A DNA stretch of 64,000 bases from the sequence record PZ534534.1; one strand, written 5' to 3'. The translations under genes were made by a program, and so were the position numbers. This document shows positions 830 to 53,061 of the stretch, piece by piece. The stretch's first letter is position 1, and each line of letters opens with the position of its first letter. The notes under the pieces were generated by a model that saw nothing but the letters and a program-made list of their open reading frames with translations, was not told the origin of the DNA and did not search any database. This DNA comes from a phage.

Positions 830-1072
830 ATGTTTAAGGTTAAGCTCGTTTTTCGTTCCATGAATGAGGATTATTTAGAAGATGAAGGTGAATTTCGTGC
901 ACTGGATGATGCAATAGATTTTGCCAACGACTTAGCTTGTATGAATACGGGTTATGGGCTATGCTGTTGGGATGGTGGTGTTCAGATCGGTGATAGCAAG
1001 ATCTTCTACTTCTACCCTGAGCCTGATAACAAACAAATTAAGTATGTTTTATTTATTTGTGCTTTACAATGA
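830..1072 (+). CDS. hypothetical small protein
   Basis: 80-aa ORF downstream of promoter at 750. Confidence 0.4.
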   Translation: MFKVKLVFRSMNEDYLEDEGEFRALDDAIDFANDLACMNTGYGLCCWDGGVQIGDSKIFYFYPEPDNKQIKYVLFICALQ

Positions 1073-1359
1073 GGTTGTTTTCGTGTATCATGATGAATAT
1101 CCAATTTAAAGATGAATTTGATGGCTTTATCTCCGGATGCTTTGAAACAGGGTTCGGAGAAGACTGAGTTCCCCTTAGAGGGCTTGATAGTGCACCACAC
1201 TTAAAATGGTAGGGGCAGCCAGCACATGACGATGTGACCCCAGCCAACCTGTAATAAGGTCGAGCCAAAGTGCGGTAATGGGCTCTGGTAACCCACTTGT
1301 TGGGTCTTGCTGGTCTAGGACGCTGGACAAGTCGCAGGGAATACCACCCTGCGGCGAAC

Positions 1360-1388
1360 TTGACAATCAGTATTTGCTATGATAAAAT
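1360..1388 (+). promoter_or_regulatory. sigma70-like promoter (TTGACA-17-TAAAAT)
   Basis: Perfect -35, 17-nt spacer, TAAAAT -10, about 28 nt upstream of the ATG at 1417. Confidence 0.6.
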
Positions 1389-1416
1389 CCACCTATCACG
1401 TGATAATGGAGGAAAC

Positions 1417-1755
1417 ATGGCGGATACAACTAAAAAGCGTCGCCGTAGAGGCAGACCTCTGAAAGAGGAGTCCAACGCCATTCAGCTAGAGAAGAACATC
1501 CTTGATATGAAGGAATCTTTTATAGCGATGGTTCCAGAAGCTCACAAAGTTTTAAGAGAGCTGATGTTGGACCCGAAAACCAAACAAAATATTCGTCAAA
1601 GCATTGCAGAGTATGTTCTTGATAAGGCAGACCGAATGCAGGAAGAATATGATGAGATGTTCGGTGAAGAGGAAGAGGTGGTAGTAGAAGAGGCTGAAAA
1701 ACCAGCACCTTTTATGCCATTTACCACAGAAATACAGCCTGTTGGCAATAGTTAA
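1417..1755 (+). CDS. hypothetical protein with basic N-terminus and acidic C-terminus
   Basis: ATG at 1417 preceded by GGAGGA; N-terminus KKRRRRGRP; the ORF-track start at 1297 lacks an RBS. Confidence 0.5.
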   Translation: MADTTKKRRRRGRPLKEESNAIQLEKNILDMKESFIAMVPEAHKVLRELMLDPKTKQNIRQSIAEYVLDKADRMQEEYDEMFGEEEEVVVEEAEKPAPFMPFTTEIQPVGNS

Positions 1756-3768: not shown

Positions 3769-4193
3769 TGTCTAAGATTTACGGACCGTGTTCTGAAAAG
3801 CAGAAGATGATCCTTGAAAACGATGCAGATATTTTGGTAATCGGCGGTGCCGCAGGGTCTGGCAAGTCGTTCCTCTTGCAATTGATGCCACTTAAAATTA
3901 TTGATGACCCCCACAGCTCTGTGGTTATGTTCCGAAGAACAACCCCACAGTTGGAAGGTGAGGGTGGACTATGGCCTAAAGCAGTAGCTATTTATAGTGA
4001 TCTGCCTGAAAACATTAAGCCAAAGTTCAGAGAGAAGGATCATAAGTTCATTTTTCCACGGTTTGATCCGAACACCGGCAAGTGGGATAGAAGCAAAAAG
4101 GGAGCTGTTGTAAAATACTGCCACATGGAGTATGTACAAGATAAGCTTAACCATCAAGGGCTTGAGTATACCATGGTTTGCTTCGATGAGGGT
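3768..4193 (+). CDS. terL: terminase large subunit, exon 1 (ATPase Walker A GGAAGSGKS, Walker B MVCFDE)
   Basis: Walker A/B motifs typical of terminase ATPase domain; ORF ends with in-frame stop immediately after the predicted 5' splice site (GAGGGT|TAATT). Confidence 0.8.
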
Positions 4194-5076
4194 TAATTTG
4201 TAGCTCTCGTAAAACCTCCCTAATTGCGGGGAAATCTTTATTATTGACACCACCAACCTGTCATGGTAACATGATAGAGGCTTCGAAGAGAGATCGAAGG
4301 TATGGTAACAGTGTGTTAATTTAGATAATCCGCAGCGAAGCATCCGAGAGGATGAACGTTCAACGACTAGTCGAAAGACGTAGAATCAAGCGATTCGAAA
4401 CGGGAGGGTGAATGTGTAATACTAAAAAATGTATGGATTGCCAAAGAGTTCTACCTATTGATGATTTCTTTTTATCATCTAAGAGCAAGGATGGATACTC
4501 AGGTACATGCAAGGAATGCTATATGTACTACAGGAAGGGTGGATCTCGTAAAAACAAAAATATGGTTAAGAGAGATGACGCAGCATTGTTTATTCAAGAC
4601 TTGCTGAAGAAAGGTGAACTTTTTGAATGCAAATCTTGTCATGAAAGTATGCTCGCTGATAGTTTTTACACAAAACGTGACTATGGTAAAGTATATCTGG
4701 TTACGAACAGGTGTAAGATGTGTGAAAAGTTTTATCAGATTGAGAAGAAATTTCACATAACAAAAGATGAATACTATCGTCTACTCTCAGATCAAGATCA
4801 TAAGTGTGCCATTTGTAGAATATCCCTTGATGAGTATAGGACGCAAGGGTATAGAGATTTCTTTTGTGTTGATCATGACCATAAAACTGGTGCTGTAAGA
4901 GGGTTGCTTTGTGATAAATGCAACAGAGCTTTAGGTTTCTTCCAAGAGGATGAGGAAACTATTCTTAGAGCGGCAGAGTATTTACACATTCATAAGATAT
5001 AGTCTGGTCTGCATGGAGACATGCAGCTGCCTGAAAATGGCGGGGCAAGACTAGCGACCTTGCCCGAACATAAACG
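4194..5076 (+). mobile_element. group I intron 1 (td-like) in terminase gene, carrying an HNH endonuclease ORF
   Basis: Begins TAATTT after exon-terminal U; 3' core CTGCATGGAGACATGCAGCTG...GGCGGGGCAAGACTAGCGACCTTGCCCGAACATAAACG closely parallels the T4 td intron core as recalled from memory; exon reading frames are restored across it. Confidence 0.7.
4412..5002 (+). CDS. intron-encoded homing endonuclease, endonuclease VII-like HNH zinc-finger type
   Basis: Motif CAIC...VDHDHKTGAVRGLLCDKCNRALG matches the recombination endonuclease VII / HNH pattern; several CxxC pairs; own RBS GGGAGGG. Confidence 0.8.
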   Translation: MCNTKKCMDCQRVLPIDDFFLSSKSKDGYSGTCKECYMYYRKGGSRKNKNMVKRDDAALFIQDLLKKGELFECKSCHESMLADSFYTKRDYGKVYLVTNRCKMCEKFYQIEKKFHITKDEYYRLLSDQDHKCAICRISLDEYRTQGYRDFFCVDHDHKTGAVRGLLCDKCNRALGFFQEDEETILRAAEYLHIHKI

Positions 5077-5393
5077 ACACAATTCGAATGGGAGCAGATA
5101 GACTATCTGATGTCTCGTCTGCGATCTCAGTCAAAGTATCCATCAAGAATGGTTATCAGCTGTAACCCCGATTCAGAACACATGCTTGCCAAACTGGTTA
5201 GATGGTGGTTGGACGATGAAGGGTATCCAGATCCGGAGAAATGCGGTAAGAAAAGATATTTTATCCGACGCGACGGTGAATTTATCTGGGGAGACTCTAA
5301 AGAAGAGTTGATAGAGAAATACACCACGGTTAACGGACTGGGTGTTGAGATCAAGCCAAGACCGTTGTCATTCTCGTTTATAGGCGCAACCAT
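5077..5393 (+). CDS. terL: terminase large subunit, exon 2
   Basis: In-frame continuation (TQFEWEQIDYLMSRL...SFSFIGATI) with no RBS at the internal ATG (5110); boundaries inferred from frame conservation and td-like intron ends. Confidence 0.65.
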
Positions 5394-6372
5394 TAAATGA
5401 TAGTGGCTTCGTGCAGAAATGCACGTCGAATAACTTCGTTAATTGCTGGGAAATCCGATTGCTAAACGGACAATCAGCAGCTATAATTACCCTTCCGAAC
5501 CTGTAGTAGGGAGATGTTTGAAATGAAAAATTTAGGCTTTTTAGGCTACAATCATTATTGTGCTACATACGATGGCAGAATTTACAGTCTGTATTCTAAT
5601 AAATTCCTCCATCCTAATGTGCAGAAAAAGACTGGCTATGCTATGGTAACTTTGTGCGAGGACGGTAAAAAGTTCCAAGTGCTCGTTCACAGAGTGATTG
5701 CTATGACTTTTGTTGATAATGACAATCCCAGCGTGAAAACTCAAGTAAACCACCTAGATGGTAATAAGTTGAATAACGCCGCATGGAACCTTGAGTGGAC
5801 AACGCCTGAGGAAAACACACATCACGCTCATGAAATGGGACTTAAAAAGGACTATGTCAATAAATACAGGTCCCTGGATGATGCCACTGCTCTTGAAATA
5901 TGTAGGCTGTTAGAACAAGGCGCAAGGGTAAAAGACATTTGTGAAATGTTCGGTGTCAATCAACCACTTGTAAGTGGTATAAAGAATGGCTCAGTATACC
6001 CAGATATTTCTAAAGAGTTTAACTTTAGAAAAGTGCCAACCTCTAATCGGATAAGTGAGCACAAGATAATAGGTATCTGCGAGGATCTTAGTGATAAGGT
6101 CTTGTGTGTCAATAAAATAGCTAAGAAGTGGGGAGTAAGTTTTAGTGTTGTTAAAGGAATAAAAGACCGTAAGACTTACACCTATATTTCAAACAATTAC
6201 GATTGGTAATGTAGTTCAACGACTATCCCGAGAGGGAGTAGGGCGCAAGCTTATGGCGCTCGAAAAGCGAAGCACCCTGAAATGGGTGGTGATATAGTCT
6301 ACTCTGCATGGTAACATGCAGCAGCACGTAAAGGTGCGGAAGGTGGTGTTGCGACCACCTTTGAATATAAGG
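5394..6372 (+). mobile_element. group I intron 2 (td-like) in terminase gene, carrying an HNH endonuclease ORF
   Basis: 3' core ACGACTATCCC...GGGAGTAGGG...GATATAGTCTACTCTGCATGGTAACATGCAGCAG plus P9-like hairpin AAGGTGGTgttgcgACCACCTT; the exon-3 frame opens only 2 nt before the predicted 3' splice site. Confidence 0.7.
5514..6209 (+). CDS. intron-encoded HNH homing endonuclease with C-terminal HTH
   Basis: Motifs VHRVIAMTFV...VNHLDGNKLNN...NLEWTTPEEN are the canonical HNH endonuclease signature seen in phage homing endonucleases. Confidence 0.85.
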   Translation: MFEMKNLGFLGYNHYCATYDGRIYSLYSNKFLHPNVQKKTGYAMVTLCEDGKKFQVLVHRVIAMTFVDNDNPSVKTQVNHLDGNKLNNAAWNLEWTTPEENTHHAHEMGLKKDYVNKYRSLDDATALEICRLLEQGARVKDICEMFGVNQPLVSGIKNGSVYPDISKEFNFRKVPTSNRISEHKIIGICEDLSDKVLCVNKIAKKWGVSFSVVKGIKDRKTYTYISNNYDW

Positions 6373-52914: not shown

Positions 52915-53061
52915 TTACTTAAAATCTTTGTCACCTATTACGATTGCACGAATCCACTCATTGTGATGTTCAATGGCGGTAAGGTGTAACATAATGCAGT
53001 GATTGTCATTACCAAACACGGTGCGGTAAGCTTTAGCAGCACCATGATATAACTTCCACAT
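52915..53061 (-). CDS. small hypothetical ORF (48 aa), not in supplied ORF track
   Basis: Hand-translated from the minus strand in a 197-nt gap between same-strand genes. Confidence 0.25.
   Translation of the reverse strand: MWKLYHGAAKAYRTVFGNDNHCIMLHLTAIEHHNEWIRAIVIGDKDFK

Follow-up and report, generated by a model that had tools for sequence, protein, structure and literature searches.

Here we report a conserved, covarying and strand-specific RNA structure in a 64,000-nt stretch of phage DNA (record PZ534534.1; the whole stretch is called the window below), where it lies on the plus strand in the spacer between open reading frames (ORFs) 75 and 74, and which is common to unrelated phages by horizontal transfer. 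We favour, with moderate confidence, the reading that positions ~1170-1357 form a structured non-coding RNA gene of ~170-190 nt, a member of a previously unannotated family that has spread horizontally among virulent phages of the Gammaproteobacteria. BLAST places the source among the rV5-like Vequintavirus phages, with 99.6% identity to phage rV5 (DQ832317) across window positions 1000-1450; as in rV5, the spacer is flanked by ORF75 (830-1072) and ORF74 (1417-1755), downstream of which ARAGORN and Rfam place seven tRNAs at 1852-2664. The first-pass annotation of this DNA, made from its letters and a list of ORFs, had proposed that positions 1073-1416 might encode a small structured RNA or be the remnant of a mobile element. 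The first of these proposals is borne out by compensatory base changes across many unrelated phage lineages and by a covariance model that matches 1233-1290 at 70.5 bits (E 6.5e-17).

A covarying RNA core common to unrelated phages

The RNA nature of the element was first suspected because the T4 and rV5 sequences next to a shared stretch differ while keeping the same pairing, GGGAA..[CCUCAU..AUGAGG]..UUCCC in T4 against GGGG..[CACAU..AUGUG]..CCCC in rV5. Conservation across related phages, which had been named as a check on the first proposal, is deep and is concentrated in a covarying RNA core at 1242-1284. In an alignment of 44 distinct core sequences, helix S1 (Table 1) forms between the bases that immediately precede ACCUG and those that immediately follow CGGUAA. 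The three pairs on its inner side are present in 100% of these sequences, with three to five pair types each (AU22/UA9/UG6/CG5/GC2, CG26/GC8/UA5/AU4/GU1 and CG36/GC7/AU1). None of 500 column shuffles reached the observed covariation score, and pairing fell from 89% to 19-48% when, as a control, the partner strand was slid by one to three columns. Because S1 contains G-U and U-G pairs (24 cells, counting the flanking column pair 11:51), at which the opposite strand would have A-C mismatches, the signal is strand-specific and belongs to the plus-strand RNA. The bulged G1280 (alignment column 48) is unpaired within S1 and invariant.

Within S1 lie hairpin Pa and a segment of 18 nt. Pa takes the form GCCA/UGGU in phage KIL1 and GCCU/AGGC in the second copy of the T4-like L041, with the loop consensus G-U-R-N-N-A. 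Alignment columns C29, C34, C41, G42, G43, U44, A45 and A46 are invariant in the 44 distinct sequences, and the core as a whole has about 13 invariant positions in ~45 nt. A candidate 2-bp CC/GG helix (1265-1266 with 1274-1275), which would make the core a three-way junction, is also invariant, so that it is never contradicted and gains no support from covariation. All-against-all column covariation revealed no further supported pair or pseudoknot in the core. Minimum free energy (MFE) prediction prefers the helix GAGCC:GGCUC, which was discarded for S1 because two-sided changes are absent and its pairing is disrupted in 5-10 of 27 sequences.

Directly 5' of S1, and abutting it, lies a second covarying helix, P1, which encloses an asymmetric loop (CAGCCAG) and an inner hairpin (CACAU 1223-1227 with AUGUG 1232-1236, loop GACG). 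P1 reads GGAAC/GUUCC in rV5 subgroup B, GGGAA/UUCCC in T4 and GGGAG/CUCCC in the T4-type L021, and in Klebsiella-type T4-likes it reads AAAGG/CCUUU, AAAGC/GCUUU or AAAGA/UCUUU; elsewhere it appears as GGAG/CUCC (KIL1) and as GAGG/CCUC versus GAUA/UAUC (L056/L229). The inner hairpin of rV5 subgroup B, CUACG-GACG-CGUAG, has four of its five pairs altered on both sides, a count that, like the other rV5-like pairs of the 5' domain, comes from direct reading of the sequences and not from a formal pair count. Among T4-likes one inner base pair has been lost from both sides together, CUCA/UGAG becoming CUA/UAG. The leader upstream of P1 is nearly identical in rV5 subgroups A and B and lies directly downstream of the subgroup B promoter described below; its sequences are too similar for covariation to appear.

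The 3' part of the RNA is lineage-specific and in the window consists of three hairpins. The first of them is truncated in the rV5-like metagenome contig L281, in which the remaining RNA is retained. In the second, the changes seen are U1316 to C (rV5, L019 and L250) and A1327 to G (L019), and its GACG loop recurs in the inner hairpin of the 5' domain. The third contains the hairpin GCAGGGaataccaCCCTGC at 1334-1352 that had been singled out as an example of stable structure; that hairpin is real and extends to a 9-bp stem, and it proves to be part of the lineage-specific 3' decoration and not of the conserved core. Its loop varies from AAUACCA to AACACCA with the stem kept, and rV5 subgroup B has a different terminal hairpin, GCUGG-GGACGGA-CCAGC. 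This hairpin may be the 3' end of the RNA or a stabiliser; the terminator scan did not report it as an intrinsic terminator, and it is followed by GAACTTGACAATC without a T tract. In T4-likes the 3' domain (for example L007 4288-4345 and L002 2544-2600) has two hairpins with A(N)GGA loops, ACAU-GGAUGAAUU-AUGU and GCC-AAGGAA-UGGC, which precede the Shine-Dalgarno sequence of the gene vs.8 and resemble binding sites of CsrA, for which the consensus obtained by systematic evolution of ligands by exponential enrichment is RUACARGGAUGU.

Distribution and genomic context

A BLAST search with window positions 1000-1450 matched 805 of 50,697 phage records. The whole query was matched by 119 rV5-like records, and ~680 T4-like records matched only window ~1240-1282 (43 nt) at 91-97% identity; the ~45-nt core is found at ~95% identity in about 800 GenBank phages. 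Family members were fetched with exact core-derived patterns (IMG/VR scans and one metagenome scan) and then scored with a covariance model, R1, built in this analysis, a procedure by which diverged members are missed, diversity is under-sampled and the apparent invariance of the core is partly built in. R1 scored 90 copies (58 + 32) at 45-79 bits in about a dozen lineages. Exactly one copy is present in the window; the model found no second copy there, the only other match being one of 12 bits (E 0.73) at 52948-52994.

Copies occur in T4-likes of three sequence types, in both subgroups of rV5-likes, in the Phapecoctavirus (phAPEC8-like) phiWec188, in the N4-like Klebsiella phage Pylas, in Klebsiella siphophages of 46-48 kb, in the Kagunavirus EcoPhCCP1, in the Pseudomonas syringae phage KIL1 and in uncultured contigs (L038, L056/L229, L224, L194 and L290). 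Tandem copies are present in some T4-likes (L041, L043 and L285) and in L229/L246. A bacterial origin was considered and rejected. The pattern GTCGAGCCNNNGNGCGGTAA does occur in bacterial contigs, at least 120 of them, but every one of these matches falls within a GC-rich coding gene (cysteine synthase, VEPTSGN, is one example), and 100 bacterial contigs re-scored with the model (L058-L157) gave at most 23.5 bits, compared with 45-79 for true copies. Neither the rV5 copy nor the Kagunavirus copy has a match among 5,426 E. coli genomes. The patchy distribution shows horizontal movement of the element between phages; the proposal that it is a mobile-element remnant is nonetheless not upheld, the element being intact and highly constrained.

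Outside the T4-likes the element is usually found within or next to a group of tRNA genes and on their strand, and its orientation is always that of the neighbouring genes and tRNAs. It sits between tRNA-Thr and tRNA-Gly in phiWec188 and between tRNA-Met and tRNA-Arg in KIL1, is 100-700 nt from tRNAs in Pylas and in L030, L033, L034, L042, L049, L037, L038 and L224, and in the window precedes the first tRNA by 570 nt. The genes downstream are unrelated between lineages. By reading of the sequences, not by terminator scan, intrinsic terminators stand 3' of the element in L038, L239, L056 and L194; a promoter follows it in L241 and L223. In rV5 subgroup B (L037, L266, L267 and L258) the conserved 5' end of the RNA is preceded at ~20 nt by a strong promoter, TTGACA-17-TATACT, and a promoter of the P74 type follows the 3' end.

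Two further arrangements were seen among the carriers. Beside tRNA genes in L030, L033, L034, L042, L049, L178 (phiWec188 1434-1720) and L231, the motif is one unit of cassette arrays in which long imperfect inverted repeats, ACAACAGGTAAGAGCATT ... AGTGCTCTT(T/A)(C/T)CGTTGTG, bracket variable inserts of 50-80 nt. The 3' bracket contains a boxA-like GCUCUU(A/U), and single cassettes recur at 90-100% identity in unrelated phages, namely HK620, Salmonella phages, Vibrio pYD38-A and Klebsiella Magnus. In Kagunavirus/Jerseyvirus-likes (L241 9195-9330 and L223 2020-2148) a promoter-like TTGACA-17-TACTTA stands 3' of the motif, and behind it come a ~70-nt unit and a strong terminator (CCCGGCC..GCCGGGATTTTTTTT); the ~70-nt unit, which may be another small RNA, is conserved without the motif in about 440 Salmonella and E. 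coli phage records.

In reference annotations the element is concealed by protein-coding calls. In T4 (NC_000866) vs.8 is annotated at 64253-64912 (L180 2254-2913, minus strand), so that the core at 64852-64909 is filed as coding. RB3 has a 1-nt insertion that breaks the in-frame vs.8 extension of T4, and there vs.8 begins at a downstream ATG (MRTFLTGPY...); the vs.8 start of the T4 reference is probably ~110 nt too early, swallowing the RNA motif, with RB3 and others using the downstream ATG. The vs.8 protein has a Walker-A-like GRQSGKS and an hhhhDE motif, and beyond the Walker-A motif no relatives were found in Pfam or the PDB. A link between the element and vs.8 was rejected for the window, in which there is no vs.8 homologue. 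KIL1 gp159, a hypothetical protein (NC_030934 16228-16470; L244 589-831, minus strand), is annotated across the motif (~L244 707-764), on the other strand from the tRNAs, and is probably a spurious ORF call.

The spacer and its neighbourhood in the window

Within the spacer, only 1168-1416 has no credible ORF and is truly non-coding (Table 1). The statement that no plausible ORF occupies 1073-1416 thus holds for that stretch and not for 1069-1167, where a 32-aa ORF accounts for the first ~95 nt of the span. This ORF is annotated as naswa_25 in phage naswa, and its counterpart in rV5 subgroup B is only MKDEFDGF (8 aa); on its sequence it is a possible small ORF of putative coding status. A run of 21 nt inside it, AAAGATGAATTTGATGGCTTT (1108-1128), is the same in rV5 subgroups A and B despite the 32-aa and 8-aa lengths of the ORF, and is either a micro-ORF or a nucleic-acid signal. 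The predicted promoter at 1063-1091 could start a transcript carrying both the small ORF and the RNA. The consensus promoter reported at the right-hand end was recovered by a promoter scan and carries the name P74 in the annotation of rV5; it is a feature separate from the RNA, standing between it and ORF74.

Table 1. Coordinates of the RNA element and adjoining features in the window
Feature	Position	Strand	Remarks
Promoter candidate	1063..1091	+	sigma-70-like TTTACA-17-TATCAT, 10/12 matches; prediction only
32-aa ORF (MRLFSCIMMNIQFKDEFDGFISGCFETGFGED)	1069..1167	+	ATG overlaps ORF75 stop (ATGA); outside the RNA motif
5' leader, hairpins CCCU/AGGG (1172-1182) and AGUG/CACU (1189-1201)	1171..1211	+	conserved among rV5-likes
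5' domain, helix P1 GGGG 1212-1215 / CCCC 1238-1241	1212..1241	+	direct reading of sequences
Helix S1, 5' strand (AGCCA)	1242..1246	+	pairs with U1279 and GGCU 1281-1284
Hairpin Pa (ACCU/AGGU, loop GUAAUA)	1247..1260	+	98.9% of cells paired
18-nt junction/loop (C GAGCC AAAGUG CGGUAA)	1261..1278	+	consensus C-GAGCC-N6-CGGUAA
Helix S1, 3' strand (U, bulged G1280, GGCU)	1279..1284	+	covariation across 44 distinct sequences
3' hairpin a (ACCCA cuugu UGGGU)	1291..1305	+	lineage-specific, dispensable
3' hairpin b (GUCUAG GACG CUGGAC)	1313..1328	+	one-sided changes keep pairing
Terminal 9-bp hairpin (GUCGCAGGG aauacca CCCUGCGGC)	1331..1355	+	contains the 1334-1352 hairpin of the first-pass annotation
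Promoter P74 of ORF74	1360..1388	+	TTGACA-17-TAAAAT, extended -10 TG, 11/12 matches; annotated in DQ832317
5' untranslated region (UTR) of ORF74	1389..1416	+	Shine-Dalgarno GGAGG 1408-1412, ATG at 1417

Two compositional claims made for the spacer hold in part. The GC content of 1168-1358 is 55.0% against a window mean of 44.2%, a level equalled in only 0.34% of 191-nt windows; that of the full 1073-1416 is an unremarkable 47.1% (top 16%), so that the GC-rich region is narrower than was described. Several stable hairpins had also been noted, and hairpins are indeed present, with a stability no greater than that of shuffled sequence: the predicted folding energy gave z-scores of -1.74 (1095-1360), -0.69 (1168-1358) and -1.05 (minus strand). 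With z-scores of -0.7 to -1.7 not significant, the thermodynamic argument for structure was dropped.

Elsewhere in the window, ARAGORN reports at 2321-2419 a 99-nt 'tRNA-???' with a 4-base anticodon (atcc), which scores 35.5 bits with the Rfam tRNA model and is unannotated in rV5; it may be a pseudogene, or else a tRNA interrupted by an insertion or an intron. Group I intron models match at 4184-5026 (48.5 bits, gathering score 50) and at 5384-5635 (19.8 bits), both inside the terminase large-subunit gene, which the rV5 annotation joins from three pieces (ORF64ABC).

Relation to known RNAs and possible functions

A covariance scan for known RNA families, also suggested at the outset, covered 6 kb at E<=1 and matched none of the 4227 families of Rfam 15 to 1073-1416. 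With lax filters and a threshold of E<=10, a 206-nt stretch gave only chance microRNA and small nucleolar RNA fragments of 9-12 bits, and the same was true of a T4-like copy. Neither ARAGORN nor the Rfam tRNA model finds a tRNA in 1073-1416, and the models for RNase P and the T-box show no homology to the element. Full-text literature searches found no description of this RNA; PMC13096335 is not about it. Since it has neither an Rfam match nor a description in the literature, we treat it as a new RNA family, and the motif is probably a new class of phage RNA. The novelty concerns the family and not a demonstrated new mechanism.

Several known RNAs resemble the motif in part. The species 1 and 2 RNAs of T4 (rnaC and rnaD), small stable RNAs from the T4 tRNA cluster, are likewise phage non-tRNA RNAs of ~120-190 nt whose genes stand among or next to tRNA genes and share their strand, and function is unassigned for both them and the motif, but they share no sequence or structure relation with it: a filter-off covariance scan of T4 62000-76000 finds only the copy before vs.8 (73.4 bits), 6 kb away from the rnaC/rnaD region, where the best match with filters off has E ~0.5. 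In helix 18 of 16S rRNA the 530 loop reads ..CAGCAGCCGCGGUAA|U534, and the motif similarly has AGCC...CGGUAA immediately before the 3' nucleotide of its closing pair, with CGGUAAU identical in the rV5 and T4 copies. The motif differs in having 4-6 extra nt between GCC and CGGUAA and a hairpin inserted 5', no partner for a GCC pseudoknot was found in it, and the resemblance could be due to chance. Among RNAs that bind the CCA ends of tRNAs, RNase P RNA does so with GGU in L15 and the T-box antiterminator with UGGN in its bulge; the motif too has an invariant, apparently unpaired GGU and a genomic tie to tRNAs, and pairing with tRNA 3' ends is, by this analogy, only an idea. A UAA/GAN module in the motif is likewise only an idea. 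An antitermination site of the boxA/nut type (boxA core consensus GCUCUU(A/U)) was also considered and was rejected: GCTCTTW does not occur within 3 kb of the element in the window, and its 16 sites in the window are at chance level.

As a stand-alone gene, the RNA would be transcribed rightward from an upstream sigma-70 promoter, with or next to the phage tRNA operon, would accumulate as a discrete stable molecule and would act free, not as the leader of the next gene. Its invariant single-stranded nucleotides, displayed on a scaffold of S1, Pa and P1, would bind a partner common to distant hosts, for which a protein, a tRNA or ribosome component, or a small ligand are candidates. In most of its contexts no consistent ORF follows the element, and this speaks for a stand-alone RNA over a leader, as do the placement among tRNAs, the terminators read 3' of it in some contigs, the lack of kinship among downstream genes, the strong promoter of its own in rV5 subgroup B and the presence of P74 before ORF74 in the window. 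The persistence of invariant unpaired nucleotides from Escherichia to Pseudomonas phages suggests a conserved partner or an intrinsic chemical function, and the association with tRNA clusters suggests a role in translation, tRNA biology or counter-defence. A number of points weigh on the other side. The transcript ends come from promoter and hairpin predictions only, and the binding partner is pure conjecture. The predicted folding energy is no better than that of shuffled sequence, and a fold constrained to contain S1 and Pa is about 7 kcal/mol less favourable than the MFE structure, which favours GAGCC:GGCUC. The invariance of the core is partly built in by search patterns derived from that core, which under-sample its diversity. 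In T4-likes the element is on the coding strand and always just 5' of a vs.8 homologue, a position that, together with the tandem copies, is typical of cis-acting aptamers.

This last point is the starting place for the strongest competing view, which we nevertheless think unlikely, namely that the element is a cis-acting leader, a riboswitch or protein-binding operator controlling the downstream gene (vs.8 in T4-likes; ORF74 and the tRNA operon in rV5). The place directly before the vs.8 start is kept in four T4-like genera (Tequatrovirus, Mosigvirus, Jiaodavirus and Kanagawavirus) despite an upstream neighbour that varies between denV, Ip4 and an ipIII-like gene, and about 13 invariant nucleotides in a 45-nt junction, with S1, Pa and P1 covarying as aptamer helices do, recall orphan riboswitches and tandem aptamers such as the glycine riboswitch, with which the motif shares a small junction, many invariant unpaired nucleotides, covarying helices, occasional tandems and, in T4-likes, a 5' UTR position. 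In L038 a terminator and then a gene follow the element, by sequence reading. Unlike riboswitches, however, the motif has no consistent class of downstream gene, no clearly identifiable expression platform and no Rfam match. The consistent 5' UTR position holds only in T4-likes; in at least five other lineages the element lies between tRNAs, in small-RNA cassette arrays, or with a terminator or promoter 60-120 nt on. No homology links the genes that follow it, and in the window, which lacks vs.8, the independent promoter P74 separates the element from ORF74. The GAGCC:GGCUC helix does compete with S1 in many copies, with no two-sided changes, and we found no conserved alternative pairing with a terminator or Shine-Dalgarno sequence. 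It is improbable, too, that the element is a self-cleaving ribozyme or processing signal cutting polycistronic tRNA/small-RNA transcripts or mRNAs. A compact junction core with invariant unpaired nucleotides would suit such a role, as would its place in multi-RNA transcription units that need processing and, in T4, between denV and vs.8, and the size, junction architecture and density of invariant nucleotides are similar to those of the small self-cleaving ribozymes of phages (hammerhead, twister and twister-sister). Against this, the hammerhead, twister, twister-sister, pistol, hatchet and hepatitis delta virus ribozyme models give no match even at E<=10, the junction strands (0 nt, CGAG and UAA) do not match those of a hammerhead core, a conserved dinucleotide at which cleavage might occur could not be identified, and in the cassette arrays the unit is already flanked by long bracket stems typical of RNase III sites.

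Explanations that dispense with an RNA are effectively excluded. ORFs of 30-71 aa exist on both strands (1112-1204 and 1278-1382; minus strand 1175-1366 and 1053-1268), and the reference annotations run vs.8 in T4 and a minus-strand coding sequence in KIL1 across the motif, but substitutions in the helices are compensatory and not codon-like, non-triplet and 1-nt indels break every frame, and none of the candidate ORFs is conserved between lineages; ~95% conservation between phages with no other shared DNA rules out a neutral spacer, and we regard a protein-coding origin or an accidental GC-rich spacer as very improbable. Just as little probability attaches to a site acting at the DNA level (a replication origin, a recombination or homing site, or a protein-binding operator), which would accord with the patchy, horizontally transferred distribution and with the proximity of tRNA regions rich in homing endonucleases; yet the helices tolerate G-U and U-G pairs that are A-C mismatches on the other strand, and the orientation always matches that of neighbouring genes and tRNAs.

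Returning to the stand-alone RNA, we entertain, as a tentative and rather unlikely specification of its role, that the invariant C-GGUAA-N-G and GAGCC nucleotides let the motif engage a universally conserved part of the machinery of translation or of tRNAs. It would then be a decoy or modulator by which phage translation is shielded, for example from defence nucleases that attack tRNAs. Capture of the 3'-CCA ends or the elbows of tRNAs is one conceivable mode of action, and mimicry of the 16S 530 loop or of a tRNA anticodon arm is another. Such a role, if true, would account for the retention of one and the same core in phages infecting E. coli, Klebsiella, Salmonella and Pseudomonas, and for its movement together with tRNA genes.

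On a broader level, a 45-nt core that is ~95% identical across phage families with nothing else in common implies a strong common selective target. If the favoured reading is correct, T4, the most studied of phages, and hundreds of phages that are candidates for therapy (rV5-like, T4-like, phAPEC8-like and Klebsiella phages) carry an unrecognised and strongly constrained RNA gene, hidden in reference annotations inside vs.8 in T4 and under spurious ORFs in KIL1. Its association with tRNA clusters would make the role of non-tRNA RNAs in phage tRNA regions testable by T4 genetics.

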